Notes: generated by a model not told the origin, from the sequence alone. Counted from the first letter of the stretch, positions 7,857 through 41,582 are shown. The stretch: DNA of 64,000 bases from an uncultured candidate division WWE3 bacterium (GCA_963765125.1 CAVXUZ010000005.1:97596-161595); one strand, 5' to 3'. Translations and numbers: made by a program.

Positions 7857-7983
7857 ATATATCTCCCTTCTCTGATAGTTGTGTGAAATTATAGCAGATT
7901 TATATAATTTTGGATAAAAGCGAACAGGTTTTTTGTGTGCACAAAAAAATACGTCCGCAAAAAATGCGGACTTAATTTTTATG

Positions 7984-8119
7984 GTGGCAAATCGTCGCTT
8001 TGCTCCTATTGCACGCCAACTCACTAAGCTCGAGTACGAGCAAGCGATTTGGTGGCAAATCGTCGCTTTGCTCCTATTGCACGCCAACTCACTAAGCTCA
8101 CTACGTTCGCTAAGTGATT
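7984..8119 (-). repeat. Two tandem ~67-nt copies of a tRNA 3'-trailer repeat abutting the tRNA-Val CCA end
   Basis: ggtggcaaatcgtcgctttgctcctattgcacgccaactcactaagctc appears twice (7984-8050, 8051-8119). The same motif family follows tRNA-Leu(TAG) at 17108-17137 and the tRNA-Trp 3' duplicate at 41268-41335. Confidence 0.8.
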
Positions 8120-16873: not shown

Positions 16874-17095
16874 TTATGGTTTGGTGATTTCTTTGCTTTG
16901 TTTCGAATACTTATCTATGAGTAGATAAATAATTGGTAGTATACCTACCGAGTTAATTACTAAAAGTGGAATAAACCAATATTTTTGTCCTCTTTGTGCT
17001 GATTTCCACAGAGCTATCCCTCTCCACACAGCATCCCAAGCAAGTGTAATAATAAAAACCAGCTTATTTTCAAATGTAAAATTAAAGTTGTTCAT
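16874..17095 (-). CDS. Small membrane protein (start moved to the ATG at 17095)
   Basis: The ORF-track extension overlaps tRNA-Leu; the internal start MNNFNFTFENK is followed by two TM helices. Confidence 0.45.
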   Translation of the reverse strand: MNNFNFTFENKLVFIITLAWDAVWRGIALWKSAQRGQKYWFIPLLVINSVGILPIIYLLIDKYSKQSKEITKP

Positions 17096-17137
17096 ATTGC
17101 ACTCCAACCCACTAAGCTCGAGTACGAGCAAGTGATT

Positions 17138-22159: not shown

Positions 22160-22619
22160 ACGGAGCTAAATAAGTTAGATTATCTAACCGCTCCTGAAGA
22201 ATATACGCAAGACTTCATAAAATTCTTATGCGTAAAATGATTTCTCATAGGAGGTATTTGTTGACAATATTGTCGCAGATGCCTCCTGTTTTTTTGTAGG
22301 GTATTTATAGAAGGCTTTATTTATAACTATTTTTTCTTCAAATAAATTTCAATAATTAACGGTCTTCATCAATCTTGATATTTAAAATACCCTATGTTAA
22401 GGTTGCCTCAGAGCTACTCGCATGAATCGGTGTTGGGAACAAGAGAAAATATACATTGCAGAGGTCCAATAGACCGATCGGTTGTCAGAATTCTGATGAC
22501 TTGAGTTTTGGTGAAAATGTGCGCCACTTTCTGAAGAACAATAGGAGAAGCTCACTGGGGCTATCAAGTGATAACACCGCTTGGTAGCCCTGAACTTTAA
22601 AAATCTAAGGAGAAGGAGA
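22160..22619 (+). ncRNA. Candidate structured non-coding region upstream of the RT (possible retron msr/msd)
   Basis: Non-coding and dense in perfect palindromes/hairpins: GGAGC..GTTAGATtATCTAAC..GCTCC (22172-22205), AGGAGG..GACAATATTGTC..CCTCCT (22250-22288), ACCGATCGGT and TCAGAATTCTGA (22462-22498). Same strand as the RT and immediately upstream of it. Confidence 0.35.
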
Positions 22620-23572
22620 ATGAGTAGAGGAGAAAAACGAGTTATTGAGACTTGGGAATACGCAAGTTTGGCGTGGTTATCAAAAGAGGCCAAAATTAAT
22701 GTTTGGACGTTGAGCGCAGTACTAACTAAATGTCGAACGGAGTCTTTAATTGATCGTCTCTATCGTACGGTAGAAGTACCAAAACACGGTGGTGGTAAGC
22801 GCGTAATATCTGTTCCTGACCCAGACTTACTCAAAGTGCAAAAGGCTATTAATGATCGCATTTTGAAAGAACTGCCTAGACCATCCATGCGCGTTTGGTT
22901 TTTCCGGAGGTAGCATTATTGAAGCTATTAGACCGCACTTGAAAAACAAAGTGTTGTATTCCTTTGATGTAGTAAATGCATTCGGGCAAATAGAACGTCA
23001 ATATCTTCGGTATGCACTTCGTGGACATTCTTTCAAAGATAATTGAAGAAGTACTTTTTGATCTTGCCTTTTGGAAAGGAAATCTTCCACAAGGGTCGGC
23101 AATGAGCCCAAGACTATTTGACCAGGCTTTTTATAAAACTGACACGCGAATTGCACGGCTAGCTAAGAAACTTGGAGGTGTTTACACACGCTACGCAGAC
23201 AACATCTTTTTTTCTTTACCAAGGAACCACTTTCCAGCAAAATTGCAGAGTGCTGCTCTTCGTCGAGTGCGGGCATTGGATGGGTATTTTTTCGATTGCC
23301 ACGAATTTTCAATTCGTAGATTGGACAAAGGCGCGGTTAGAATTTTGGGACTAAACATAATAAACGGAGAGCTAAGCGCTACCCGTGATTATAAGCGCAA
23401 CCTTCGCCTTGCTGTGCATCACGTAAATTACTTGGTTGACAACGAGCTTCCTTATTTCATTGAATGGTCGCGTCTCCAAGGACAAATGGCTTTTGGTGTT
23501 TTAGGTTTCTTACCAAATTCATTAATAGAAGCTTATTCATCATTAGAAGAAAGAATTAGTAACACAAAATAA
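22620..23572 (+). pseudogene. Retron-type reverse transcriptase, degenerate (two +1 frameshifts; YADD replaced by YADN)
   Basis: Frame A 22620-22913 has RT domain 1 (GGGKRVISVPDPDLLKVQKAIN). The +1 frame 22868-23045 has domain 2 (AFGFSGGSII...LYSFDVVNAFGQI). The next +1 frame 23012-23572 has domains 3-7 (LPQGSAMSPRLFD, YTRYADNIFFS, RILGLNI). AAGGAGAAGGAG RBS before the ATG at 22620. Confidence 0.75.
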
Positions 23573-25490: not shown

Positions 25491-25512
25491 TTGGTTGTGG
25501 TGACAGGACTTG
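25491..25512 (-). repeat. Partial duplicate of the tRNA-Pro 3' end (T-loop to CCA), att-scar-like
   Basis: Minus-sense CAAGTCCTGTCACCacaACCA versus the genuine CAAGTCCTGTCACCccgACCA, 18/21 identical; 700 bp from tRNA-Pro, same orientation. Confidence 0.6.
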
Positions 25513-25595
25513 GTCAAGAGTTTAAGGCCCGTTAATTCACGTTGTTCATAAGTGTAAGTAAGCTCGTGCTCCCTTTTTTTTCGCTGGGTTCAGCC

Positions 25596-26186
25596 CTAAT
25601 TATTTAAGTCTTGTAACAAACAAAAAAGTGTGTTGTCCAAGTTCCGCATTTTACAACAAAATATACTAACTTGATTTTTTAAAGTTTCAAAATAGTCATT
25701 AGACTTTGGGTCCTCGTATTTGTCGTAAGCTTCTTGAATAAGCATTGTCAACTCATGCAACCATGATTCATAGAGTCTAGTATCCATGCTCTTCATAGTA
25801 GGTGAAAGCGCGTTATCTTCAATTTCAGCACTAATTGGTAGGGGAAAACTTTTTGGGTACTTTTGTGATAGATACACGAAAAAATTATCTGCTATGGAAA
25901 GTCTCTCGTCGAGTTTAGGCATTTCGGGCGCGTCTTGAATGGGTACAGGAAAACCCGCACTTTTAAATTCCGATACCTCAATCATATTTCTGGCTAGTTG
26001 TTTTTGAAACTCAGGATCTAATATACTCTGGGTCTCAGTGTTATAGCCGCTCTTTTTAATTTCTTCAGCCCAGTAGCTATTTTGTAGTAATCCCCCATCG
26101 AGCTTCTTGTCCAAGTAATCATAATTTATGGGTTTTTCATTTTCGGTGTGGGTGTCTTCTTGATTATAAGTCTCAAAGTTAAGCAT
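25596..26186 (-). CDS. Hypothetical protein (single gene enclosed between tRNA-Pro and its 3'-end duplicate)
   Basis: 196-aa ORF. Confidence 0.45.
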   Translation of the reverse strand: MLNFETYNQEDTHTENEKPINYDYLDKKLDGGLLQNSYWAEEIKKSGYNTETQSILDPEFQKQLARNMIEVSEFKSAGFPVPIQDAPEMPKLDERLSIADNFFVYLSQKYPKSFPLPISAEIEDNALSPTMKSMDTRLYESWLHELTMLIQEAYDKYEDPKSNDYFETLKNQVSIFCCKMRNLDNTLFCLLQDLNN

Positions 26187-26213: not shown

Positions 26214-26291
26214 CTGGTCGGGGTGACAGGACTTGAACCTGCGACCTCGCGGTCCCAAACCGCGCGCTCTAGCCAACTGAGCTACACCCCG
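26214..26291 (-). tRNA. tRNA-Pro (anticodon TGG), CCA encoded
   Basis: Manual fold: anticodon stem CGCGG/CCGCG with loop UUUGGGA, T-loop UUCAAGU, acceptor CGGGGUG/CACCCCG. Confidence 0.85.
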
Positions 26292-30229: not shown

Positions 30230-30288
30230 TATTTTTATTTGGTGGACTAGAAGCGACGACGTGTTAACTATTTAGGAATTTTAGTACT

Positions 30289-31875
30289 TCAGAACGAATC
30301 CATATCTGTTTGATAGTGATTTATTTTAAGATCTATGTTTGTTTCATAAAGTTTTTCTAATATTCTTTTTTCCTCAAGTATGCTCGTTTTATCTAATACT
30401 ACATTTGACGGTATAGAAATTGTTACATCGCAAGTAATGGTTAGGTTGTCTAGTTGATCGGCTGCGTCTATCGCGTCAATACTGCTAATTGAAATTGATT
30501 TTAATTCACCCTCTGGAACTACCCTAGATATCATTTCCGCAAGATCGTTTTTTATTTTTGATAACTTATCATCCTGGGTCCCTCTTAGGCTAATAATAGG
30601 CACTAACGTAATATCTAAATTTATTTTTATCCCCGTGTCCTTCTCTACATCAGCCTGCAGGGTGTCTTTATCTTTGCTAGAAAAACCATTTGTTGGGTTA
30701 ATTCGTAATACCGTAGCTACATTCCATATATCGGACACTTTAGCTATTTCGACAGTACTTATCTGTATAGAGGAATCCTTGTTAAAAATATATTTTTTAA
30801 GTGAGTCAATAATTTTAACTTTAATGCTATCATTTTGTTCTTTTTCTGCGCTGACTATTGAGAGTGCTCTCTGAATACTAAACGAAACATCTACCTTGCT
30901 GTTTAGTGTTGTTTCGAGTTTGGAAATAATTGAATTTTGTTGTTGATAATCAATAATTACATCTTCTGGTACTATAACGTCCGCTGCAATGTACACAGTA
31001 TTTCCATCAGGAGAGTATTTTATATCTGTTTGTATATTTTGAACCACGACCTTTTTTGATATTTGTTTTAATGACTCTTCGATTATGTTTTTACTCTTAT
31101 CATAAACACTGTTTTGAAATGAATAATCTTTTAGATAAAGCAAAAGAGGGAGCGCGGTAATTACGAGTATGGCAGTTATTGTAATAAATCCTTTTATCCG
31201 TATTTTTGTACCGTCTCTGCTGTTTATACCTGTCAAGCTAAACACAATAGTCGAAATAAAAATAATCGATATTATGTTAGCAAAAAAAAGCATAAATCCG
31301 CCGGTGGATACCTCATAGTTTTGGAGCGCCAGACCAATTCCAGAGACACACAGTGGTGGCATAAGCGCGGTGGCAATAGCTACACCTGCTAAACTATCCG
31401 AAATCTTCTTTTGTACAATTGACAGCGCAGCAATCATTCCGGCAGCTAGCGCGATGATGATGTCTAGTAATGTCGGTGATGCCCTAGCCAAAATCTCTTT
31501 GCTTAAAAGCTTTATCGGAGAAAAGTAGGTTATCGCGTAAGCGCTTAAAATTGCTATAAACATTGAAAAAATTAAGAGCTTCATAGCTTGAAATAATTGA
31601 TTTTTATTATCCGACGCAACCCCCAACGATATTTTCATAAGTGGCCACATTAGAGGAGATATAAGCATTCCTCCAATTATTACCGGAGGTGAATTTAATA
31701 TTAACCCTAAGGAACACACTGTCGTTGCTGATATCAATAAAATAAAAAAGCTTATTGATGCTTGTGAGTAAATACTAACTTTTTGTACCACTGCATTCCT
31801 GTCAATATTTTTTAGGTCATTTACGAGCTTCATTTTTTGCTCAAGAAAGTCAAAAAGCGCGAGTAATATATTCAT
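30289..31875 (-). CDS. DUF389-family membrane protein
   Basis: GGMLISPLM...LAGVAIATALMPPLC conserved DUF389 block, followed by a large extracytoplasmic C-terminal domain. Confidence 0.55.
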   Translation of the reverse strand: MNILLALFDFLEQKMKLVNDLKNIDRNAVVQKVSIYSQASISFFILLISATTVCSLGLILNSPPVIIGGMLISPLMWPLMKISLGVASDNKNQLFQAMKLLIFSMFIAILSAYAITYFSPIKLLSKEILARASPTLLDIIIALAAGMIAALSIVQKKISDSLAGVAIATALMPPLCVSGIGLALQNYEVSTGGFMLFFANIISIIFISTIVFSLTGINSRDGTKIRIKGFITITAILVITALPLLLYLKDYSFQNSVYDKSKNIIEESLKQISKKVVVQNIQTDIKYSPDGNTVYIAADVIVPEDVIIDYQQQNSIISKLETTLNSKVDVSFSIQRALSIVSAEKEQNDSIKVKIIDSLKKYIFNKDSSIQISTVEIAKVSDIWNVATVLRINPTNGFSSKDKDTLQADVEKDTGIKINLDITLVPIISLRGTQDDKLSKIKNDLAEMISRVVPEGELKSISISSIDAIDAADQLDNLTITCDVTISIPSNVVLDKTSILEEKRILEKLYETNIDLKINHYQTDMDSF

Positions 31876-31965
31876 GTGAAAACTATATCAGTTAAGCCAT
31901 TTAAGTTAAAGCTAAGCACAAATGTTTTTGCAGAAAATAAAGCTGATACAACAGCTAAATATTTA

Positions 31966-31980
31966 TGGTGGGCGAAGAGG
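31966..31980 (-). repeat. 15-nt duplicate of the tRNA-Leu(UAA) 3' end (tggtgggcgaagagg)
   Basis: Identical to the 3' end of the tRNA-Leu at 36750-36835, 4.8 kb away. Confidence 0.55.
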
Positions 31981-32084
31981 TATCTTTCACTTCGTTAAAG
32001 TTGCATCCACAACGACTAAACTCGCCTCGCTCGTTAAGTCTTGTGTAGGAGTCAAAGACATCCCTACTGCTCCATCAAAACAAA

Positions 32085-32148
32085 AAATCCAACCACAAGG
32101 GTTGGTTTTTCTTTTGTTTGGTGGGCCATCTGTCAGGATGTGCGAACT
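32085..32148 (+). repeat. Hairpin-plus-T-run, then 30-nt repeat tggtgggccatctgtcaggatgtgcgaact (copy 1)
   Basis: CCAACC-acaag-GGTTGG stem and T-run at 32085-32117; the 30-mer at 32119-32148 is identical to 33888-33917. Confidence 0.6.
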
Positions 32149-32192
32149 ATTTATATAGAAATTGTCGTCGGGCTATAAAGCTTGGCTGAACT

Positions 32193-32753
32193 TTATTGCA
32201 TTAGTGGAAAATCCCTGCTCTCCGTAATTTGGGTGAAGGTATCATTTAGTATTGCGAATGTTATGGTGTTCAAGTTAAAGGTAAAGTCAAAGTTTAAGTT
32301 CTTAGCTTCTTCTAAAGCCTGTTTATATAACGGTTCATCTAAGGGTACTTTTGTCGGATTTTTCAGATCGTATTGAGCGTTCTTATCTACAAACTGGCCT
32401 AGTCCAACATGTGGTATAAATTCAATATCTTTTCTTAAGAATTGTTCAAGCATCCCTGTATATAAGATATCGTGCAATTTAATTATTTCCTCCCTTCCTT
32501 CTTCTAAGGTTAAAAATAAGAAGTTATCCCAGGATTTAGTTAGACCTTTAATGTGTGCGTTAAAGCTTTTAAAACTCTTCAACCTATCTCACACATGTTC
32601 TAAAAGTAAATCCTCAGAGATCGATTTAGCTGAGATTGGAAATACTATAGTTACATGTGGCCTAATAAGATTGAACTGTGTGTCGTACTTTTTTCTGAAA
32701 CCATCTATCTTATCCAATTCAGATTTTACATACGCTACTAAAACAAAATACAT
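32193..32753 (-). pseudogene. 2H-phosphoesterase (LigT/CPDase-like) gene with an in-frame TGA at 32589-32591
   Basis: The upstream segment MYFVLVAYVKSELDK...RPHVTIVFP (H-x-T-x motif 1) is in the same frame as ORF 32193-32582 (..FIPHVGLGQF, motif 2), separated by a single TGA. Confidence 0.5.
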
Positions 32754-32782
32754 ATTTGCAATTCTATATTAAAATCTCCAAA

Positions 32783-32802
32783 AGTTCGACTCCCTCATGG
32801 GT
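32783..32802 (+). repeat. 20-nt direct repeat agttcgactccctcatgggt (inverted partial copy of the tRNA-Leu T-loop/acceptor)
   Basis: Matches agttcgactccctcttgggt at 36550-36569, one mismatch, same orientation, 3.77 kb apart. Confidence 0.55.
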
Positions 32803-32869
32803 TTGTCGAAAAAGAGGTTGATATGACAACTATAAGTCTATGGTGAGCCATCGTAGAGGATGTTTGGAA

Positions 32870-33487
32870 CTATTGCATTGCTGAAGTACCACTTAGATGA
32901 GATGTATCGTCAAATACAACTGGTGTAATTGTATTTTCCTCAAAGTCAAAGATTGAGATTGAAGCATTCTTTGGATCGTACTTGAATGATTCTTTTTTAG
33001 GTACTGACAATAAATAAGGCATTAGTGCTCTAATAGATCCTCCGTGAGTTACTATTCCAATTACAGCATTACTATTATCAGTATTTACTTGTTTAATATT
33101 ACTTATAAGTCGATGTTCGAAGTCTTTCCATGACTCACCTTTAGGCGGTACGAAGTCATAACGCTGTTCAAGAGATAACGGATCAAGAACAGTTTTTATT
33201 TCAGACCAGGGTTTTCCTGAATAATCTCCCCAGTTCCTTTCTTCCATGCCTGTAAGCGGTATAACTGGTATATTGCAAATCTTACTGATTATTTCAGCAC
33301 TTTGTAGTGCCCGAAATTCATTAGATGCATATAAAACATTGCAATTCAGTTCTTTCAACTTTTCACTTGTCTGTTGTATTTGTCTTATACCATTTTCAGT
33401 TAAATTATCAGGATCACCAAACTTATGTAACACATTTTTAACATTTGTTGCAGTTTCACCGTGTCTTACTAAAATTAATCTATTCAT
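32870..33487 (-). CDS. Histidine phosphatase-family protein (phosphoglycerate-mutase-like)
   Basis: N-terminal LVRHGETATN catalytic RHG motif; 205 aa. Confidence 0.7.
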   Translation of the reverse strand: MNRLILVRHGETATNVKNVLHKFGDPDNLTENGIRQIQQTSEKLKELNCNVLYASNEFRALQSAEIISKICNIPVIPLTGMEERNWGDYSGKPWSEIKTVLDPLSLEQRYDFVPPKGESWKDFEHRLISNIKQVNTDNSNAVIGIVTHGGSIRALMPYLLSVPKKESFKYDPKNASISIFDFEENTITPVVFDDTSHLSGTSAMQ

Positions 33488-33564
33488 TAGGATATTTTAA
33501 CAGAAAGTTCTAAATTCTCTCTTGGGTATATAAAAATAATGTTGTTGTGACAGTGTAAATTCTT

Positions 33565-33917
33565 TGGTGGGCGAGGAGGGAGTCGGTCACATGTTTTTCA
33601 TCTCTAGCTCATTACACTCGCAAGATCTGAAAGCATTCGATCCCGCCTCCTTCACTTCGTTCAGTCCGGTATTCGCCTCCTACTTTTACCAACAAAAAAG
33701 TGTCCATCAAACCTTTAGGTCTGCTGTACACTTTTCTGGTGGGCGAAGAGGGAGTCGGTCACCTGTTCTCGCCTGCTGGCTCGCCAGTCGACCCCGGCTC
33801 GGCACCGTCGTGCCTGCGCCTTTCGCCTCCCTTACTAGTCATAAGAAAAAAATATCCGGCATTGTAGCCGGCTATCTTTTTCTGGTGGGCCATCTGTCAG
33901 GATGTGCGAACTGCTTT
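33565..33917. repeat. Tandem att-scar-like array: two 26-nt tRNA-Leu(UAA) 3'-end duplicates, each followed by a core element, then hairpin plus 30-nt repeat copy 2
   Basis: tggtgggcgaGgagggagtcggtcac at 33565-33590 and tggtgggcgaagagggagtcggtcac at 33737-33762. Each is followed by a core related to 36599-36715. CCGGC-attgta-GCCGG hairpin plus T-run at 33856-33885, then the 30-mer at 33888-33917. Confidence 0.65.
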
Positions 33918-33955
33918 AGTTACTATTAACTACTAAAAAGTCTTAAAATAGATAT

Positions 33956-34798
33956 ATGTTGTATCATAGTGTCATGGAATTAAAAACAGCTAAGTTACAA
34001 AAACATTTCTACATGTACTGCGCGATGTTTTACGCAGATAATCGTACTATCGGTCATAAAGATTGGGTCTCAGAACTTAAAGATAAAGTTATTACTGCAC
34101 TTGAGAAATCAAACACACCAAAACTAGATATGCCCATGCATAGCTACCATTACCTTATGGGAATATTTAATCCAGAAGGTTACGAGGACCATGGGAGATT
34201 AATGATTCCTCCTAAAGAAGTTTTAGATTATGTTGAGCGAGTATCCGCACTCCCGGAATTACAAGAAATATGGAAACAATACGAGCCTGATTTTGATACT
34301 AGACTTAAGGATTTTGAGGAGCGTTTTATTGATATAGAAAACCTTTTTAAAAACCATTTTGATTATGAGCCTGATATTAAAACCTTTTATTTAACAAGAA
34401 ATTGGGATACATCGGGAAAATGTATTATAACTAAAGATGGTTACTACATTTTAGTTGGGTGGAAAAAAGAGGGCATAAATTTAAACCAAATACTACATGA
34501 ATTAACTCACAGTTATTTAGATAAATGTACATTAACCATTCCGAGGGACGTAAACGATTACCTTAAAAAAATGCCAGAGGAAGTTTTAGGATCTTATGCG
34601 AATCCCCATGCTTATATAGAAGAATCCATAATCCGGGCACTTGTATTGTATTTAAGTCATTCGGAAGAAAATATACAAAACTATTCTTTAGTAGGAACCG
34701 ACTTGGATATGATATTACCTGCAAAGTACTTAGATGTTTTGGAAAAAGATAAGCCCGAAAAGTTAACTATAGAATATCTCAATAAACTAGCCTATTAA
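33956..34798 (+). CDS. Hypothetical HExxH protein (putative zinc metallopeptidase)
   Basis: 280 aa with QILHELTHSY; adjacent to the Cys-rich peptide/rSAM pair. Confidence 0.45.
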   Translation: MLYHSVMELKTAKLQKHFYMYCAMFYADNRTIGHKDWVSELKDKVITALEKSNTPKLDMPMHSYHYLMGIFNPEGYEDHGRLMIPPKEVLDYVERVSALPELQEIWKQYEPDFDTRLKDFEERFIDIENLFKNHFDYEPDIKTFYLTRNWDTSGKCIITKDGYYILVGWKKEGINLNQILHELTHSYLDKCTLTIPRDVNDYLKKMPEEVLGSYANPHAYIEESIIRALVLYLSHSEENIQNYSLVGTDLDMILPAKYLDVLEKDKPEKLTIEYLNKLAY

Positions 34799-34888
34799 TA
34801 AACATTATTTTTGCTAAGAAAAGGTAAAGGGACTACTTCCAAGTGTATAAGAAGTAATCCCTTTTTTGGTGACGCTTGCCGGTAGTCT

Positions 34889-35050
34889 TTAGTCTTTTGG
34901 ACAGGACTGATCGTGCGGGCACGGGTCGTTGGTATTGCCACTGCAGGAATGCCCAGAACAATCTGACGAACACTTGCCGTCGGAAGGGCAATCAGCAAAG
35001 GCAGCTAACTGAGGTTGCCAGCGAACAACTTGCGTGAAATCGGTACCCAT
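34889..35050 (-). CDS. 53-aa six-cysteine RiPP-precursor-like peptide (SCIFF-like), not in the ORF track
   Basis: AAGGAG RBS 8 nt upstream of the ATG at 35050, 19 nt after the rSAM stop. Product MGTDFTQVVRWQPQLAAFADCPSDGKCSSDCSGHSCSGNTNDPCPHDQSCPKD. About 50% GC in a ~33% GC genome. Confidence 0.6.
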   Translation of the reverse strand: MGTDFTQVVRWQPQLAAFADCPSDGKCSSDCSGHSCSGNTNDPCPHDQSCPKD

Positions 35051-35069
35051 TGTCGTTTTCTCCTTTCTT

Positions 35070-36401
35070 TTAGAATTCGGACAACATGTCTTGTAGAAGC
35101 AGTAGCTTCACAATTATACAAGACTCTTGAAAAGTGTTCTCGCCTAAGTATCTAGAAATCGGACAGAAACCTTGGCAATTCCACCTTGCAAAACAATTTG
35201 AACACAGGTTTTTAGGTAATCCTCCATGTACCACAATGCGTGCGTGAGCATCGGGATTCATTACAGGTACCTGTGTGGTAGACCCAAAACTTCCATAGAA
35301 GAACAGTTCAGAGCCTGGATGCTGCTTCTTTGTGATACGCGAGCATCCGGAGACTGAACCATCGGGGCATACGCAAAACATTGTGCCTGTACTTGCTCCA
35401 CAGAATTGTAATTTATCTCTGCGGAATGTATCCAAAGTGCAAACAACGCGTAAACCTAGTTCCACTCCTATCCTACGAGCTTCTGTGTAGTATTTTACAA
35501 AAAGCCCCGGATCAACATCTAAATCAGTGGCGCCACTTGCTTTACCACAAAGTGATAGCGGCTCAAAGTGCACGAGTCCGTTCACTCCGTTTAACGCTTC
35601 TTTAGCAAGGAACCTTACAAAATTCGGCATTTCCTCCACACTCTTACTTGTTACTGTGGCACGAATAGAAAATGCTAGGCCAGCAGCCTTCAGATTTGCA
35701 ACCCCTTTCATGGCTGCTTTGAAAGAACCTTTGCCACCTACCATAGGGCGTTGCAGGTCTTGCACTGTTGCGACACCATCCAATGAGATTGTGATGTTAT
35801 CAACATTGTGTGACTTCAGCCATTCTGCAAACTTTGTAGTAATCAGTGTGGCGTTAGTCACTATGCTCACATGCAGTGTTATATCAAGCTTCTCGGCCAC
35901 TTGTAAGGCGTATAGGACGCATACCTTGAGCAGATTCTTTCGCTTCAGAGATTCCCCACCACCATGAAATGTTAGGGTGAAGTGTTTTCTGCCGCGGGAC
36001 TGTGCTAAACGCAATGCATAACTTATTGCGTTCTTTGCTACATCTTCAGGGATAGTTGTAGAATCACAACCCGCCTTTGCGTAGCAGTAGATACACCGAA
36101 GATTGCAGTCGTTGGTTAAAGATAAAGTAATTCCTTGCTCCCCAGGTAACGATTGAGTCGGTAAAGACCAATGTTCCGGAAGTGCGAGTAACCCGTTATC
36201 TGAAAGAAACTTAACCATAACTGGGTTGAATCCGTCTGCAGTACTGCCTTCTGAAACTGCAGAAATTAGCGTCTGAAGTTGTTCTGCTCCGCCTTGTGAT
36301 AACTTGGTTACCAAGCCATGCAATGGGGCATACAACAAGAAAGACGGTTCGTTCGGATACAGAATAAGAAAAAGCCAATCTTTAGGCTTTAGTGTGTCCA
36401 T
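35070..36401 (-). CDS. Radical SAM / SPASM-domain peptide-modifying enzyme
   Basis: CNLRCIYCYA (CxxxCxxC) and a C-terminal Cys cluster (CGASTGTMFCVCPDGSVSGC...CSNCFARWNCQGFCP) typical of SPASM. Start moved to MDTLKPKD (GAGAGGAG RBS). GC-richer than the surrounding sequence. Confidence 0.8.
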   Translation of the reverse strand: MDTLKPKDWLFLILYPNEPSFLLYAPLHGLVTKLSQGGAEQLQTLISAVSEGSTADGFNPVMVKFLSDNGLLALPEHWSLPTQSLPGEQGITLSLTNDCNLRCIYCYAKAGCDSTTIPEDVAKNAISYALRLAQSRGRKHFTLTFHGGGESLKRKNLLKVCVLYALQVAEKLDITLHVSIVTNATLITTKFAEWLKSHNVDNITISLDGVATVQDLQRPMVGGKGSFKAAMKGVANLKAAGLAFSIRATVTSKSVEEMPNFVRFLAKEALNGVNGLVHFEPLSLCGKASGATDLDVDPGLFVKYYTEARRIGVELGLRVVCTLDTFRRDKLQFCGASTGTMFCVCPDGSVSGCSRITKKQHPGSELFFYGSFGSTTQVPVMNPDAHARIVVHGGLPKNLCSNCFARWNCQGFCPISRYLGENTFQESCIIVKLLLLQDMLSEF

Positions 36402-36549
36402 CGCATCTTTTCTCCTCTCGATGATTATTTGATTTGTTGGCGTATTTATAGCATGAAAATGGCAATACCTCAATTTAAGATCTATTAACATGAGGCTATC
36501 TTTTTTTAAATGTGGGAAAATATAATTAAGTTTATGCCGTAAACACAAG

Positions 36550-36598
36550 AGTTCGACTCCCTCTTGGGTATTTGGTGGGCGAAGAGGGAGTCGGTCAC
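36550..36598. repeat. Inverted-repeat hairpin built from the tRNA-Leu 3' end: 20-nt repeat (36550-36569) plus 26-nt 3'-end duplicate (36573-36598)
   Basis: GTTCGACTCCCTCTT-gggtatttggtgggcg-AAGAGGGAGTCG, a perfect 12-bp inverted repeat. Confidence 0.65.
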
Positions 36599-36715
36599 AT
36601 GTCTTTCAACTCTAAATTCGCTCAAGCTCATTAAGATTTGAAAGCATTCGACCCCGCCTCCTTCACTCACTTCGTTCGCTCAGTCCGGCATTCTCGTCTC
36701 TCCTCAAAATGAAAA
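36599..36715 (-). repeat. Conserved ~115-nt non-coding core element (tRNA-3'-end-associated mini-element, copy B)
   Basis: gtcacatgtctttcaactctaaattcgc(tc)aagctcattaagatttgaaagcattcgacccc... is about 90% identical to 41362-41470 next to tRNA-Trp, with diverged copies at 33591-33700 and 33763-33850. Confidence 0.7.
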
Positions 36716-36748
36716 AGCTGAAAGTATTAAAACACTTCCAGCTTTTCC
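36706..36748 (-). terminator. Rho-independent terminator of tRNA-Leu(UAA)
   Basis: AAAAGCTG...CAGCTTTT 8-bp stem directly 3' of the tRNA, with a U-run on the minus strand. Confidence 0.55.
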
Positions 36749-36749
36749 A

Positions 36750-36835
36750 TGGTGGGCGAAGAGGGAGTCGAACCCTCACGTCCTAATGGACAAGAGATTT
36801 TAAGTCTCTCGTGTCTGCCATTCCACCACTCGCCC
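36750..36835 (-). tRNA. tRNA-Leu (anticodon TAA), long variable arm, CCA encoded
   Basis: Manual fold: anticodon loop CUUAAAA, T-loop UUCGACU, 3' CUCUUCGCCCACCA. Confidence 0.85.
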
Positions 36836-36892
36836 ATAAAATTCTTCGTAGCAAGGCATATTATACATATTACATCGAGGGATTTGTAGTGG

Positions 36893-37285
36893 TTACCGCT
36901 CGTTAATTAAATCAGCCAATTCCTTAAGTTCGTCCATTGTTGTTTTGTATGTCGGTTGCGCTCCGAACTTTCCTTTATAAATAGGAATTAGTTTAGCGTG
37001 AAGGTGTGGCACGTCTAGTCCTTCAAAAATGACGGATGTTCTTAAAATTTCTGGCAACTTTTGGTCTAAGATTTTTGCAACTTCTTTAACCGCGTCCATC
37101 AGTGGTGTAAGTTCGGTTGTTTCAACGTTAACCAAATAACTATCTTCATGTTTTTTTGGGATGACAAGGGTCATACCGCGTTCATACGGATTTATGTCTA
37201 AGAACGCAATAAACTTTTTATTCTCCCAAATTTTATAAGATGGAATTTCACCACGCGCGATTTTACAAAATAAACAGTCTTCCAT
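36893..37285 (-). CDS. HIT-family (histidine triad) hydrolase
   Basis: 130 aa; HLHAKLIP HxHxH motif. Confidence 0.8.
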   Translation of the reverse strand: MEDCLFCKIARGEIPSYKIWENKKFIAFLDINPYERGMTLVIPKKHEDSYLVNVETTELTPLMDAVKEVAKILDQKLPEILRTSVIFEGLDVPHLHAKLIPIYKGKFGAQPTYKTTMDELKELADLINER

Positions 37286-37368: not shown

Positions 37369-37534
37369 TTAAAAATAAGCCAAATTCAAGCATTTTGTAT
37401 TTTACACGATTGAGGGCAAAGAATAAACCTAGATTATGTAGTTTTTGTAAAATTGTTTCTCAGTAGGTAGGGGTGTATAATCCTGAAAAATAGTGCTTAA
37501 AAAGGTTAATATCATAGTGTTGAGGAGGCATATT

Positions 37535-38578
37535 ATGGAAGGGTTAGGTATTTACGGAGGTTGGTTGACGGTAAACCGCTTTTGTAATTTTAGATGCGGC
37601 TGGTGTTACGCTAAGGGGACAAAATTTAAATCAGAAGATAGTATGTCTGTTGAGCTTGCTAAGAATCTGATTAATTTGATGCACACAATTGGAGTTCATA
37701 ACGTAATACTTATCGGCGGAGAAACTTTGTTTTGGCCCCACTTGTTTTCTATCGCGACGTACATTAAGTCTCTAGGTATGACGAGTGCGGTTGTTACAAA
37801 TGGCTGGTTGTTGGGATTTGAAAAGTTTCGAAAAAAAGTAGAGACCTCAGATATTACTTCTCTCAGTATTTCACTAAAAGCAGGTAACAGGCACCAATAT
37901 GAGAAGCTAACTGGCTTTGATGGATTCGAAAAGGTAGTTGATGGTCTTCGCGAAGTTTCCAAGTGGAAAAACATAAGGGTGGAAACCACAACCGTTGTGA
38001 ACACAGAAGTACTAAGGAATATTGATGAGATAGCAAAGTTGGCGTTTGATAACGGGGCAGAATCTTTCAACATCTCAATGTGTGGTCCAGTGATTAGCGA
38101 TGGTGTATTTGACAACCGATTTGTTCCAGAACCAAAAGATGTTGTGAATACATTTTTGAGTAAATACGAATTACTTCATTCGCTAAGTAAAGGAAAATTT
38201 TCTATCGAGGCAGCACTTCCTACCTGTCTTTGGCCAAAGGAGTTTTTACATAAGCTGGAAGAAAACGATCAGATATCTTATGGGTGTCACTTTAAAACGA
38301 GAAGTGGGGTCATCTTTGACAGATTAGGTAGAATTATACCGTGCAATCAGCTTTTCGATTACCCTATGGGGCAATATGGCGAAGACTTTACAGATCTAGC
38401 TAGCTTTTCCGAAGTTTGGAATAGCCCCCAGCTAAATGCATTTTATGATAAAATGCTTGAGTACCCAGCAATAGCCTGCGTTAAATGCGGCGAATTTGAT
38501 AAGTGTGGCGGTGGTTGCCCACTAAACTGGTTTGTTAGGGATCCAGAGACAGTAATAGAAAAAGGAGAGCGCGTATGA
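37535..38578 (+). CDS. Radical SAM / SPASM-domain enzyme (second copy), translationally coupled to a Cys-rich peptide
   Basis: CNFRCGWCYAKG CxxxCxxC and C-terminal CVKCGEFDKCGGGCP SPASM-like cluster. Start moved to the ATG at 37535 (GAGGAGG RBS). The stop TGA overlaps the peptide ATG (ATGA). Confidence 0.8.
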   Translation: MEGLGIYGGWLTVNRFCNFRCGWCYAKGTKFKSEDSMSVELAKNLINLMHTIGVHNVILIGGETLFWPHLFSIATYIKSLGMTSAVVTNGWLLGFEKFRKKVETSDITSLSISLKAGNRHQYEKLTGFDGFEKVVDGLREVSKWKNIRVETTTVVNTEVLRNIDEIAKLAFDNGAESFNISMCGPVISDGVFDNRFVPEPKDVVNTFLSKYELLHSLSKGKFSIEAALPTCLWPKEFLHKLEENDQISYGCHFKTRSGVIFDRLGRIIPCNQLFDYPMGQYGEDFTDLASFSEVWNSPQLNAFYDKMLEYPAIACVKCGEFDKCGGGCPLNWFVRDPETVIEKGERV

Positions 38579-38745
38579 ACGCAAATCTAATGGATTTGGC
38601 TGCACAAAGAAAGAGCACCGGTGTAGTTCTAGACAAGCGTCCTTCAGGTAATCAAACTAAGACGATTATTATGGGGCATTGTCAGTGCAGATGCGCAAAT
38701 TGCAAATGTAATTGCTTTTGTGCGCAATGCAAAGCTAGTTTGTAA
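38575..38745 (+). CDS. 56-aa Cys-rich RiPP-precursor-like peptide (8 Cys in the last 20 residues), not in the ORF track
   Basis: AAGGAG 7 nt upstream. Product MNANLMDLAAQRKSTGVVLDKRPSGNQTKTIIMGHCQCRCANCKCNCFCAQCKASL; ATGA overlap with the rSAM stop. Confidence 0.65.
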   Translation: MNANLMDLAAQRKSTGVVLDKRPSGNQTKTIIMGHCQCRCANCKCNCFCAQCKASL

Positions 38746-38757
38746 CTGCTCAAATTT

Positions 38758-38798
38758 GGGGGATATTTAAGGTACCTAACTACTTTTAGATATCCCCC
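38758..38798 (+). promoter_or_regulatory. Perfect 9-bp stem hairpin (GGGGGATAT...ATATCCCCC) between the peptide and the HExxH gene
   Basis: 23-nt loop containing the palindrome AGGTACCT; no U-run, so possibly an attenuator or processing site rather than a terminator. Confidence 0.4.
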
Positions 38799-38833
38799 TT
38801 ATCCATGAGGCATTTAATTTAGATACTTGATGG

Positions 38834-39226
38834 ATGATCACATATAAATATATTGAAAACTACTTCAAAGATGACTCAGATTCGGAAGAGTTTTGTAAAA
38901 AACACAACATTGTGTACTTCAAGCCCACCCGAGAAAGAAAAGCTTGGTTAAAAAAGTGGCTTAAGGACGTAAAATTACCAAAAATTGAGTGCAAACGCGA
39001 CATAACGTGCTATTGGCGAGATTTTGGAACATGGGGAATGTACCACCCAGAAGATAATTCTATATCAATATGTCCTTATGAGATTGAGCGAGCTGGAGGA
39101 CTAGAGCAAGTTATACTTCATGAAATTGTGCATTTAGAGCACCCCGAACTTGATAAGTTACCACACAACCAAAAAGAAGATAAAATAAATGGACTAGGTA
39201 ATAAACCTAAAAAAGATAAAGCGTAG
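38834..39226 (+). CDS. YgjP/DUF45-like zinc metallopeptidase (HExxH)
   Basis: DFGTWGMY...ICPYEI...VILHEIVHLEH matches the WGSC / HELxH architecture of the YgjP (WLM-like) family. Confidence 0.5.
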   Translation: MITYKYIENYFKDDSDSEEFCKKHNIVYFKPTRERKAWLKKWLKDVKLPKIECKRDITCYWRDFGTWGMYHPEDNSISICPYEIERAGGLEQVILHEIVHLEHPELDKLPHNQKEDKINGLGNKPKKDKA

Positions 39227-39256
39227 ACTTTTTTGTAATCTACGCTTTTATTTCAG

Positions 39257-39643
39257 TTACCGCTGGTTGTTGTTCGCCTTGTTGATGTACAGATCGAGAG
39301 GATCTGCGGGTCCAAATTTGTCGATCATAAGCATGTTTAAAACCACATAGTTGACGTACAAACCCACGGCCAGTACTCCAGCGTAGCCAATTATGAGCCA
39401 TATTCCTTTTAAACTAAAAATATCGAGTAACAGGGTGAGTATTAGAAATACTAGTATGGTAAAAACAACGTAAAGACCCACACCGGTTTTCACTATAATG
39501 AAAGCCTTTTCGAACCAACTTAACGGTTTGTTTTCCATTTCAGCCTCCTCCGAGTTTAGTTGTCCTATAGTATACAAGATGGTTTGGTGATAGGCAACAT
39601 CTTCATAGGCAATAAAAAAGTGCAAATTTTGATGGATTTGCAC
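39257..39643 (-). CDS. Hypothetical small membrane protein
   Basis: 128 aa with 3 TM segments. Confidence 0.4.
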   Translation of the reverse strand: MQIHQNLHFFIAYEDVAYHQTILYTIGQLNSEEAEMENKPLSWFEKAFIIVKTGVGLYVVFTILVFLILTLLLDIFSLKGIWLIIGYAGVLAVGLYVNYVVLNMLMIDKFGPADPLDLYINKANNNQR

Positions 39644-39662
39644 TTTGATTTAACAGCCAGTA

Positions 39663-39911
39663 CTAAACTTTGTGACCATACTTCAATAAACCAATGTTTA
39701 TTGCCTCATGCACCAGGGCAATGAAATTTACCAAAGCGACTAGGCCAAAAATTACCAAAAGCACCCTAATATTCATCCCGTTGTCAATCCGATGGATAAT
39801 GTAGGCAAATGTAGCTATCCCGCATATGAGAACGTTTACTACAAGGTTCGCTTTAAAGACCTTCACAAATGCTTTTTTCGAACAATAAAAAATAGCATTA
39901 AGTTTTTTCAT
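39663..39911 (-). CDS. Hypothetical small membrane protein
   Basis: 82 aa with 2 TM segments. Confidence 0.4.
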   Translation of the reverse strand: MKKLNAIFYCSKKAFVKVFKANLVVNVLICGIATFAYIIHRIDNGMNIRVLLVIFGLVALVNFIALVHEAINIGLLKYGHKV

Positions 39912-39980
39912 GCCATCCTCTCCTCTTATTTTGTCGATTGGCTGTAATATACGCTAGTTTTAAAATTTAAACAATTTTTA

Positions 39981-40715
39981 CTATTTATGATCACCAAACC
40001 TATGTACTATCTTATTTTGTAATTTCTTATAATTACGTTTGGATAAAATTAAATATAATTCGCTTTTTAACATTTTTTTATAAAAATTTAGTCTTCCTTC
40101 TTCATCTAACCTTCTTACTGAAAAATGAATTCCTGGAGAACGAAGAATCTTAGTGTTATATCCTGCTTGATGTAGCTTGCTGCTCAAATCAAAATCCTCA
40201 GCAAGCGATAGGCTTGTATCAAATTCACCAACTTTTTTAAACGCATCTTTCTTTACAAATATGAACGTACCCACAGACCCGTGTGTCCATTTTCTAAAAA
40301 TATCTAAGTAAAGAATATTAAAAGCACTGCTCGTTAAGTGATCGTCGAGTCTGTGGCTCATTGGTATATTCCAAGCAGTTACCGAGTCGGCCCTGCCCGA
40401 CGAAACGAGTCCGTCTAATGTTTTAAGAAAGTTTTTAGAAGGCTTAACGTCGGCATCGAAGAAAATTAAATTATTTGTTTTAGCTTTAGACGCAGCATAA
40501 TTTCTTTGAAATGACTGCCCCTTTTGTGGAGAAATAAAAGTTGTTATTTTAAGTGAAGATTTAAATTCATCAGCTTTCTCTATCGTTTTATCTTTAGATT
40601 TTGCATCAGCCACGATTACTTCAAAATCCTTGTGCGTTTGCTCTTTTAGAGCGTTTAACAGGATGGGGAGATATTCCTCTTCATTAAGTGTTGGTATGCA
40701 GATGCTAAATTTCAT
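39981..40715 (-). CDS. Family-2 glycosyltransferase
   Basis: SICIPTLNEEEYL...VIVADAKSKDKT GT-A N-terminus; 244 aa. Confidence 0.7.
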   Translation of the reverse strand: MKFSICIPTLNEEEYLPILLNALKEQTHKDFEVIVADAKSKDKTIEKADEFKSSLKITTFISPQKGQSFQRNYAASKAKTNNLIFFDADVKPSKNFLKTLDGLVSSGRADSVTAWNIPMSHRLDDHLTSSAFNILYLDIFRKWTHGSVGTFIFVKKDAFKKVGEFDTSLSLAEDFDLSSKLHQAGYNTKILRSPGIHFSVRRLDEEGRLNFYKKMLKSELYLILSKRNYKKLQNKIVHRFGDHK

Positions 40716-40756
40716 TTGAGTTTATCGGCAGATTAAATCGAAGTTGTAAGAGCTGG

Positions 40757-41245
40757 CTAATTCCTAGTCCATTCAGCTTTTACACCCTTGACTTTTCTAT
40801 CCGCTAAAACCAACTCATCATATATGCCGTCTATTAAATCGTAGTTCTTTCCTTCATCTATTGTTACCCATGCATATTTATCAGTCTCATCTTTTTGTAA
40901 TGTAATATTTCCAGATTCGTAATCAGCTTTGCATGAAATAACCAACGAAGGATTACCGTCTGAGTGTATTGTCGCTAAACTTGTTACATACTCAATGTTG
41001 TTTATCTCTAGTCCTACTTCTTCTTTTACTTCTCTGCGTAAAACTTTCTCTAAAACGTTGTACCAATAAAATTCAGTATCTTTTGGTAGCGATACATAAT
41101 CTTCTGTTTCTAACTTACCTCCAGGTACAGTCCATTTACCAGGAAATCTCTTTTTATCTTTTGAACGTCTGGTTATAAGGTATTTACCGTTTTTGACGAT
41201 TATTGCGGTGATAACAATTTCGTGTAGTAATTTATCTTTTTCCAT
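40757..41245 (-). CDS. NUDIX hydrolase
   Basis: Nudix box GGKLE...REVKEEVGLEI. Confidence 0.8.
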   Translation of the reverse strand: MEKDKLLHEIVITAIIVKNGKYLITRRSKDKKRFPGKWTVPGGKLETEDYVSLPKDTEFYWYNVLEKVLRREVKEEVGLEINNIEYVTSLATIHSDGNPSLVISCKADYESGNITLQKDETDKYAWVTIDEGKNYDLIDGIYDELVLADRKVKGVKAEWTRN

Positions 41246-41267
41246 ACTTTTTTAGTATAAATCTGGA

Positions 41268-41505
41268 GGCAAATCGTCGCTAACGCTCCTATTGCATCTC
41301 AGAGTTCTAAAGCTCACTTTGTTCGCTAAGTGCTTTGGAGCGGAAAACGGGATTCGGTCACATGTCTTTCAACTCTAAATTCGCAAGCTCATTAAGATAT
41401 GAAAGCATTCGACCCCACCTCAGTCGCTTACGCTCCTTCCGGCATTCTCGTCCCCTATTCCCCATGAATAAGCCCACTAACCCTTTGGGTTACTGCGCAT
41501 CTTCA
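41268..41505 (-). repeat. tRNA-Trp-associated mini-element: core copy C (41362-41505), 26-nt duplicate of the tRNA-Trp 3' end (41336-41361), then trailer-repeat copy (41268-41335)
   Basis: tggagcggaaaacgggattcggtcac duplicates the T-loop-to-CCA segment of the adjacent tRNA-Trp. The core is about 90% identical to 36599-36715. The trailer aaagcacttagcgaacaaagtgagc...gcgacgatttgcc resembles the trailers after tRNA-Val and tRNA-Leu(TAG). Confidence 0.7.
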
Positions 41506-41582
41506 TGGAGCGGGAAACGGGATTCGAACCCGCGACCTCCTCCTTGGAAGGGAGGCGCTCTAGCCAGCTGAGCTATTCCCGC
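41506..41582 (-). tRNA. tRNA-Trp (anticodon CCA), CCA end encoded
   Basis: Manual fold: acceptor GCGGGAA/UUCCCGC, anticodon stem CCUCC/GGAGG with loop CUUCCAA, T-loop UUCGAAU. Confidence 0.85.

Follow-up and report, generated by a model that had tools for sequence, protein, structure and literature searches.

On a contig of GCA_963765125.1 (CAVXUZ010000005.1:97596-161595; this whole stretch of 64,000 nt is called the window, and positions are counted from its first letter), a stack of small units occupies positions 31966-36749 behind the transfer RNA (tRNA) gene tRNA-Leu(UAA). It is fairly probable that the stack is an accretion of small non-autonomous modules that were inserted successively at the 3' end of this tRNA gene by recombination acting in trans; it probably reaches down to about 30240. 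The modules are of two kinds, namely gene-less units with a folded element named E and gene cassettes closed by a 30-nt site named F. Several Saccharibacteria loci are syntenic with the window, and on this synteny its organism is placed in Saccharibacteria. Loci from elsewhere (47 in total) are cited by L numbers.

Modules stacked behind tRNA-Leu(UAA)

The repeated segment is the last 21 nt of tRNA-Leu(UAA), C56 to A76 (CGACTCCCTCTTCGCCCACCA). It recurs with 0 mismatches at 36573 and 33737 and with 1 at 33565, and a 15-nt leftover lies at 31966. All copies have the orientation of the tRNA and 0 matches are expected (100 shuffles), which confirms the copies listed in an earlier note on this DNA. 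Three of them had been given as 26 nt long. The 26-nt blocks are identical to each other, but just 21 nt are common with the tRNA: upstream of nt 56 the copies read GTGAC, which is part of E, whereas tRNA-Leu(UAA) reads GGGTT (tRNA strand). Further displaced tRNA 3' fragments in direct orientation stand at 41336 (Gly) and 25492 (Pro). The copies are the 3' termini of E, a conserved, folded element of ~130 nt, or ~170 nt with its leading terminator hairpin. From the tRNA outward, the stack is composed as follows.

36750-36835, minus strand: tRNA-Leu(UAA), anchor of the stack (ARAGORN; Rfam tRNA, 55.4 bits)
36573-36749, minus strand: E1 unit (123.8 bits); terminator hairpin ~36710-36749, body 36594-36709, tRNA copy 36573-36593
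36546-36572, minus strand: short left-end motif AATACCCAAGAGGGAGTCGAACTCTTG, inverted copy of the tRNA T-arm/acceptor (repeat analysis)
33913-36545, minus strand: cargo of cassette 1, GC 45-50% (L004 and L001-3 matches)
33883-33912, minus strand: F site AGTTCGCACATCCTGACAGATGGCCCACCA, right end of cassette 1 (sequence repeat; contig comparison)
33737-33882, minus strand: E2 unit, short-P3 subfamily (54 bits); terminator, E body, 21-nt tRNA-end copy
33565-33736, minus strand: E3 unit (123.1 bits); tRNA-end copy with the CCTCGCCC variant
33506-33564, minus strand: long left-end motif (…TGTCACAACAAC…ACCCAAGAGAGAATTTAGAACT), opens the histidine-phosphatase cassette (contig comparison)
32870-33487, minus strand: cargo of cassette 2, histidine phosphatase (Pfam His_Phos_1; 90% nucleotide identity to L005-7)
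32841-32871, minus strand: F' (F-b type, AGTTCCAAACATCCTCTACGATGGCTCACCA), diverged, overlaps the phosphatase stop codon (repeat and contig comparison)
32783-32840, minus strand: long left-end motif with the 32783 repeat, opens cassette 3 (repeat and contig comparison)
32193-32753, minus strand: cargo of cassette 3, 2H-phosphoesterase pseudogene with one in-frame stop
32119-32148, minus strand: F site, identical to the 33883 copy, right end of cassette 3 (sequence repeat)
31966-32118, minus strand: E4 unit, most distal and most decayed; terminator, decayed E body, 15-nt tRNA-end remnant

F (TGGTGGGCCATCTGTCAGGATGTGCGAACT) closes the gene cassettes, and its identity at 32119 and 33883 compares with no copy expected by chance. 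It ends in GCCCACCA; the last 8 nt equal the tRNA end and are the sole part common to F and the tRNA. A degenerate pattern for both F forms matched 19 JGI metagenome contigs. In several contigs, two to four copies form an array on one strand, spaced by 0.8-2 kb and separated by one or two genes (3-4 copies each in L013, L015, L018 and L020; 3 in the window). F is frequently located 0-10 nt past a stop codon, and it shares the strand of an upstream tRNA-Leu in L005, L009, L012, L023, L024 and L043. The cargo between F sites comprises HD and NUDIX hydrolases, nucleotidyltransferases, an inositol monophosphatase, LysM, an S51 peptidase, a radical-SAM (rSAM) enzyme and, by eye only, a toxin-antitoxin-like pair.

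Many ...CCA junctions carry, right after them, one of two conserved left-end motifs. The short motif is AATACCCAAGAGGGAGTCGAACT, while the long one measures ~58 nt and ends in a degenerate version of the short one. The short motif in the form AATACCCAAGAGGGAGTCGAACTCTTG stands behind tRNA-Leu in L004 and L040 and behind F in L015 and L025; the long motif of the 33506-33564 type follows F in L005, L008, L015 and L020. At ...CCA, each type of right end (tRNA, E or F) is combined with each type of left end (terminator, short motif or long motif). The direct repeat at 32783 and 36550 (20-24 nt, 92% identity) had been described as an inverted partial copy of the tRNA, and with 94% identity to the complement of the T-arm and acceptor region this proved correct. 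It had also been taken to bracket a 3.8-kb unit; instead, it is the left-end motif found after ...CCA in many contigs.

The modules were met in other contexts, and homology with other contigs breaks exactly at the ...CCA junctions, which bears out the earlier view of a mosaic made by successive insertion at the tRNA-Leu 3' end. L001-3 match window 33880-35112 at 95%; the match begins at F, with unrelated DNA beyond. L004 matches 33883-36593 at 89.6% and has the order RarA, F, HExxH gene, peptide, rSAM gene, short motif and, directly, tRNA-Leu, with no E1. L005-7 match 33572-32991 at 90% in the order HIT, tRNA-Leu, MBL-fold gene, F and, right after ...CCA, the histidine-phosphatase cassette. 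Since the rSAM/HExxH block (L004, L001) and the histidine-phosphatase block (L005) travel separately, the 3.8-kb unit is not a unit. Core markers have diverged more, with 44-54% identity for the HIT protein, 80-85% for tRNA-Leu and ~45-55% at the protein level for the flanking core genes. The phosphatase and the HExxH protein have relatives of at least 90% identity, HIT and DUF389 none such. Compared contig by contig, these sequences indicate horizontal exchange of separate modules.

Each insertion at the tRNA end would push older material outward, so that the newest module adjoins the tRNA and the oldest lies farthest from it. A gene cassette consists of a left-end motif right after ...CCA, the cargo (rSAM, peptide and HExxH genes; the histidine phosphatase; the 2H pseudogene; perhaps DUF389) and F at its end. 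An E unit of ~170 nt consists of the terminator hairpin, the folded body and the copy of tRNA nt 56-76. Insertion of E4, then 2H, histidine phosphatase, E3, E2, rSAM cassette and E1, seven events in all, reproduces the string tRNA / terminator-E1 / short motif-rSAM...F / terminator-E2 / terminator-E3 / long motif-histidine phosphatase-F' / long motif-2H-F / terminator-E4. This order fits the decay, which rises with distance from the tRNA (E4 remnant, 2H pseudogene), the arrangement of L004 as the state before E1, and E3, which keeps the CCTCGCCC end seen in tRNA-Leu of other lineages. The exchange itself would be site-specific: an enzyme supplied in trans from a gene located elsewhere would recombine the DNA at or next to ...CCA. 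E would probably be an attachment site folding as a single strand, with a closing helix that imitates the target part of the tRNA gene, and F with its left-end motif would probably act as a simple, ~53-bp palindromic site.

The genes around tRNA-Leu(UAA) are HIT, tRNA-Arg and a radical-SAM gene. GCA_002305115.1 (L046) is syntenic over DUF4349, PMT, Pyr_redox, tRNA-Gly, tRNA-Arg, HIT and APH, and its HIT-APH distance is 1.2 kb compared to 7.7 kb in the window; the gap holds one gene and an inverted tRNA-Leu. The earlier note had proposed a comparison with related genomes, and syntenic relatives do hold much less DNA there. L040-42 retain tRNA-Gly, tRNA-Arg, HIT and tRNA-Leu, with no E or F in the available ~1.7 kb or less beyond tRNA-Leu. 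E is absent behind tRNA-Gly and tRNA-Leu in L040, L046 and L047, and also behind tRNA-Pro in L046 and L047. The gap between tRNA-Gly and tRNA-Arg measures 190 nt in L040, holds a deformylase and SpoVS in L046 and contains an E unit (E5) plus ~4 kb of genes in the window. GCA_964590955.1 (L043) has tRNA-Leu(UAG), a one-gene cassette, F, a terminator and an E with a 20/21 copy of its own tRNA end, an order that follows the same grammar as the window.

Between tRNA-Gly(UCC) and tRNA-Arg, a second variable hotspot was observed at 37369-41505, with E5, NUDIX, GT2, small open reading frames (ORFs), an M76-like HExxH protein and a second radical-SAM gene.

The individual genes of cassette 1 and the distal edge are the following.

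35070-36401, minus strand: rSAM1 (Pfam Radical_SAM)
34889-35050, minus strand: 53-aa Cys-rich peptide, cassette 1
33956-34798, plus strand: HExxH protein, cassette 1
30240-31965, minus strand: possible older cassette; terminator 31941-31956, DUF389 gene 30289-31875, degenerate F-like site
30240-30269, minus strand: degenerate F-like site AGTTAACACGTCGTCGCTTCTAGTCCACCA (19/30 matches by eye; 19 nt past the DUF389 stop)

The block of rSAM1 and the Cys-rich peptide (34880-36400) has a GC content of 45-50%, compared to 33-38% around it. The annotated rSAM1 has 492 aa from a TTG, while its L004 homologue has 443 aa; the TTG start is probably over-extended, with the ATG at 36401 as the likely start. 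The DUF389, histidine-phosphatase and radical-SAM genes named earlier were found again by Pfam, and the 2H-phosphoesterase pseudogene with its one in-frame stop was confirmed. The boundary previously set at 31966 is probably too narrow: with the degenerate F-like site past DUF389, the island may reach to about 30240. DUF389 and this site may be a still older cassette, and no DUF389 gene is called at the corresponding place in L043 and L046.

Fold and distribution of element E

E is a GC-rich segment of ~105-135 nt in an AT-rich genome and is preceded by a strong hairpin with a T-run (tRNA strand). Complete units measure 146-177 nt and consist of the terminator, a folded body of ~105 nt and the copy of tRNA nt 56-76; E1, E2, E3 and E5 contain no genes. 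BLAST with E1 yielded E5, with a 93% identical core, the same T-loop joint and a Gly end instead of the Leu end. A covariance model of eight units was used to score E2 and to find E6.

41336-41505, minus strand: E5 unit (128.9 bits) behind tRNA-Gly(UCC) (41506-41582), with a 20/21 copy of the tRNA-Gly end
25492-25621, minus strand: E6, decayed (23.3 bits), ending in a 19/21 copy of the tRNA-Pro end

E6 is separated from tRNA-Pro (26215-26291) by a 196-aa ORF without family match, while in the related metagenome-assembled genome (MAG) L033 an intact E lies directly behind tRNA-Pro. When 185,579 species genomes were searched for an E-core pattern, it matched 4 MAGs, all Saccharibacteria, where E stands behind tRNA-Ser(GGA), Gly(CCC), Pro(UGG) and Leu(UAG). 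Another Saccharibacteria genome has E behind tRNA-Ser(CGA) and Ser(GGA). Each E in the MAGs bears the last 20-21 nt of its own adjacent tRNA, and E is now known behind at least six different tRNAs. The E 3' junction as query gave no match in GTDB genomes, and neither E nor F matched IMG/VR or 50,697 phage records (plasmids were not searched). ARAGORN reported six tRNAs as the only RNAs in the window and Rfam 15 passed the same six only, and an Rfam 15 covariance search of 31800-37000 gave no match on E, F or the left-end motifs even at E values up to 10; an unusual tRNA, a transfer-messenger RNA or another known RNA was thereby ruled out. The group I introns of Patescibacteria tRNAs (PMC13011429) are unrelated, as they sit in the anticodon loop.

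RNAalifold on a MAFFT alignment folded E into a three-way junction of P1, a closing helix between the E 5' end and the tRNA-derived segment, P2, a short hairpin, and P3, a ~25-bp hairpin with conserved internal mismatches. In this fold 93% of the cells are paired. Changes on both sides were seen in 8 of 30 pairs, a count that 3 of 500 shuffles reached or passed, and the covariation score was 0.22 compared to 0.10 in shuffles (0/500 reached 0.22) and ≤0.065 in a control with partners slid by 1-3 columns. Covariation thus supports the three-helix fold.

The closing helix is specific for the tRNA. Pairing of the E 5' segment is stronger with the 3' segment of the same unit than with those of other units (sum −112.6 vs. 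−93.9 ± 7.0 kcal/mol; permutation p = 0.004), as exemplified by GTGGTGAG / CTCACCAC for Pro and GGGAGTGGGAT / ATCCCGCTCCC for Ser. The same tRNA-Ser end is met by two different 5' solutions in two genomes. In addition, GGGAG or GGGAT in the 5' segment follows T-loop nt 59-60 (CU in Leu, AU in Ser), which have no pairing partner inside a tRNA. The 5' segment is therefore selected for complementarity and not copied from the tRNA. A simple 21-nt target-site duplication by a transposase was rejected, as the 5' segment is tRNA-specific too and E has no terminal inverted repeats.

The earlier note had seen in the copies the classic attL/attR signature of tyrosine-integrase elements. As decayed genomic islands, such elements would have crossed over in the T-loop, restored the tRNA, displaced its old 3' end and lost their integrases later. 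The direct-orientation fragments indeed start at the same T-loop position and run to CCA, E3 bears a foreign-type 3' end and E6 bounds a one-gene unit. According to the Islander report (PMC4383910), displaced tRNA 3' fragments of this type are the signature by which tDNA islands are mapped, and the tycheposons of Prochlorococcus also comprise tandem elements separated by partial tRNAs, with degenerate remnants (10.1101/2020.12.28.424599). However, four units of ~150-177 nt are without cargo, and the same E core occurs at six or more tRNAs with matching ends. The covarying fold and the tRNA-specific 5' segment are not needed by double-stranded arm sites, and it is F rather than a tRNA fragment that terminates the gene cassettes. 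Neither the window nor the surroundings of E and F in the 47 loci yielded a tyrosine integrase; the one in L027 is unrelated to these sites. With copies that are the ends of a conserved folded element, the signature is unproven, and decayed islands of this type are quite unlikely.

Alternatively, E could be a functional small RNA that mimics the acceptor/T-arm 3' strand of the adjacent tRNA and serves, for instance, as a decoy for or regulator of enzymes or toxins that bind tRNA ends; its location at the junctions would then be secondary. The conserved, covarying three-helix fold, the GC-rich sequence in an AT-rich genome, the closing helix, which is tRNA-specific and includes several G-U pairs on the tRNA-sense strand, a constant unit length of 170-177 nt and the conserved position behind tRNA genes in several genomes all agree with such a role. 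It is opposed by the terminator directly upstream: no promoter was found between terminator and E, and a strong terminator without promoter fits a role as DNA. Moreover, no Rfam family matches, E is absent behind the same tRNAs in relatives, tandem or decayed copies (E2-E3, E4, E6) lie far from any tRNA, and the ends of E coincide with homology breakpoints. Overall, E as a folded attachment site is favoured and the small RNA, although unlikely, is a live rival. The earlier note had named a structured RNA, conserved whatever its flanking genes, as a finding that would speak against its reading; the conserved, folded E comes close to this, although the flanking genes vary.

Chance likeness, or local duplication by slippage or homologous recombination with no dedicated mechanism, could draw on the general similarity of tRNA T-loops and CCA ends. 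It is extremely improbable given zero expected shuffle matches, exact boundaries and the same elements in unrelated contigs and MAGs.

Units of ~70 nt that end in ...GATTTGCC(A/T)CCA make up a third family, stacked directly after ...CCA at 7982-8119, 17095-17137 and 41264-41335 (all minus strand). tRNA-Val is followed by two of them in tandem, tRNA-Leu(UAG) by a partial copy and E5 by a single one. Every unit forms two hairpins, and the loci fetched from other genomes contained no member of this family. In L044 (9248-9477), another Saccharibacteria genome, a 19-nt copy of the 3' end of tRNA-Ala(CGC) lies ~150 nt past this tRNA with a non-GTGACC junction, which suggests further families of tRNA-end-carrying units.

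Recombinases and the site formed by F

All 42 ORFs of at least 180 aa and 10 of 27 non-overlapping ORFs of 95-179 aa in the window were scanned with Pfam, and ten ORFs, nine of them without Pfam hit, with NCBIfam. No integrase, resolvase or transposase domain was detected in these ORFs, as the earlier note had stated for the 64-kb window. An intact large serine recombinase (Resolvase, Recombinase and Zn-ribbon) is likewise absent from the window. The sole mobile-element-type gene is a split retron-type reverse transcriptase at 22581-22913 and 23012-23572 (plus strand; NCBIfam retron_St85_RT, E = 2.5e-19 on the C-terminal part). It has YADN instead of YADD and is probably a pseudogene; the region upstream of it, 22.1-22.6 kb, could hold its msr/msd RNA.

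Beside F, the sole recombinase is a C-terminal fragment of a large serine recombinase (Zn_ribbon_recom) in L026/L028, disrupted by an IS3-family insertion. Such insertions were observed within cassette arrays of relatives at L026 445-2508, where the recombinase is disrupted, and at L005 1803-1925, where the histidine-phosphatase gene is truncated.

A large serine recombinase might move the F cassettes, with F plus short motif as an attP of ~53 bp, the tRNA end plus the same motif as attB, and recombinase-less cassettes mobilised in trans. Pseudo-SCC elements are mobilised in trans by Ccr recombinases. The L026/L028 fragment ends on top of F and a left-end-like sequence. Read from the sequence, F and the short motif form a 53-nt arrangement AGTTCG...CGAACT with its centre inside GCCCACCA, and a perfect inverted repeat of 19 bp (z = −7.7) arises where the tRNA end adjoins the short motif. 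Measured from the centre, the distal AGTTCG/GGTTCG motif is 4 nt farther out in F than in the tRNA, a spacing that resembles the half-site offset between attP and attB of serine integrases, and the tandem arrays lack a recombinase. On the other hand, this one pseudogene has two homologues only in 5.8 billion proteins, one of them at a contig end, and its nearest full-length relative is 32% identical and without usable flank. The commoner long left-end motif has no symmetry, the fold of F plus short motif was no better than shuffles, and E is left unexplained. A weak tblastn likeness of F flanks to the recombinase C-terminus was judged to be driven by F itself and was not used. A serine recombinase as the agent is rather unlikely, and the fragment is to be taken as a lead, not a result.

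Against the proposed accretion by trans-acting recombination stand several observations. Apart from the L026/L028 fragment, no recombinase is linked to E or F sites, and neither circular forms nor empty junctions were seen. The 53-bp symmetry is lost with the long left-end motif, and folding of single E sequences gave modest z-scores (−0.7 to −2.1). That E units at different tRNAs combine 93% identical cores with matching ends is hard to reconcile with a simple attP/attB model, and F is conserved in sequence, unlike attC. Finally, the relatives compared are distant and some differences could be ordinary divergence.

Relation to known systems and significance

With tDNA islands and tycheposons, the window shares the hotspot at a tRNA 3' end, partial copies that part successive elements, the outward displacement of older by newer ones, remnants and small adaptive cargo. 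It differs in that its units have no integrase in or near them, that gene-less units of 150-177 nt occur, that a conserved folded body, with a complementary segment matched to the tRNA, is joined to the tRNA fragment and that the cassettes end in the non-tRNA 30-nt F. Cargo of the Islander type between tRNA and fragment was seen for E6 with its 196-aa ORF, whereas E1, E2, E3 and E5 enclose the terminator and E body only.

In the attC sites of integrons, which act as folded single strands, the fold is better conserved than the stem sequence. The same holds for E, which by analogy could function in such a folded, single-stranded form. Like integrons, the arrays run on the same strand with one- or two-gene cassettes, diverse cargo and a site that abuts or overlaps the stop codon. 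Unlike integrons, the window contains neither intI nor R''/R' (GTTRRRY) boxes, F is conserved in sequence, a tRNA 3' end takes the place of attI and the cassette genes lie on either strand. Sequence reading revealed no integron R boxes (RYYYAAC ... GTTRRRY) in F, E or the left-end motifs. Identification of F as a dif/Xer site or attC is not claimed, given a weak arm likeness to E. coli dif (by eye) and the absent R boxes; IS200/IS605-like ends were rejected as well, as the cassettes have no common left-end hairpin.

Staphylococcal cassette chromosome elements (SCCmec, pseudo-SCC) and the Enterococcus cassette chromosome use the large serine recombinases Ccr and form tandem composite islands at the 3' end of rlmH. 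Both systems have in common that composite islands lie in tandem where a single conserved gene has its 3' end, bounded by short direct repeats, and that many units lack the recombinase, but the target here is a tRNA, the units are far smaller and the link to a serine recombinase consists of one pseudogene. In CTX phages and integrative mobile elements exploiting Xer (IMEX), a single-stranded attP hairpin recreates the duplex chromosomal target and tandem arrays arise at one site. The closing helix of E may be analogous, as it reproduces the target part of the tRNA gene; in contrast, E has no dif-like sequence and no phage genes. The cis-mobilizable elements (CIMEs) of streptococcal integrative and conjugative elements (ICEs) are deletion derivatives of ICEs that keep the att sites, have no recombination genes and accrete at a tRNA-linked site. 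Recombinase-less elements likewise accrete at a tRNA-linked site here, but no parent element is known, unlike for CIMEs.

The overall pattern matches tRNA-seeded tandem islands and resembles integron- or SCC-like arrays, yet the features that define these, namely an integrase, attC boxes and an intact serine recombinase, were not found. In a literature search, neither E and F nor arrays of this kind turned up for Saccharibacteria, and E and F may constitute a cassette system of their own. It is possible, though doubtful, that Saccharibacteria have an undescribed system of cassette exchange in which tRNA 3' ends are the landing sites and E, a duplex mimic of the last third of the tRNA, and F are the attachment sites. 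Cassettes may then enter as single-stranded DNA, e.g. by natural competence, and a recombinase encoded elsewhere or a host enzyme would insert them at ...CCA. Such a platform would resemble an integron but lack the integron integrase.

In Saccharibacteria and other ultra-small bacteria, genomes are tiny and recognisable mobile elements few, yet gene content differs between strains. A compact system of one-gene modules behind tRNA genes would explain how accessory genes flow between lineages whose core proteins are half identical, and the functions moved include a putative peptide-modification cassette. The tRNA-specific pairing in E would be an unusual design for an attachment site or an RNA and is testable. 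As the signatures of E and F are searchable, they offer a direct map of the variable gene pool of these organisms, and the arrangement in the window points to a poorly known route of gene swapping in bacteria with tiny genomes.

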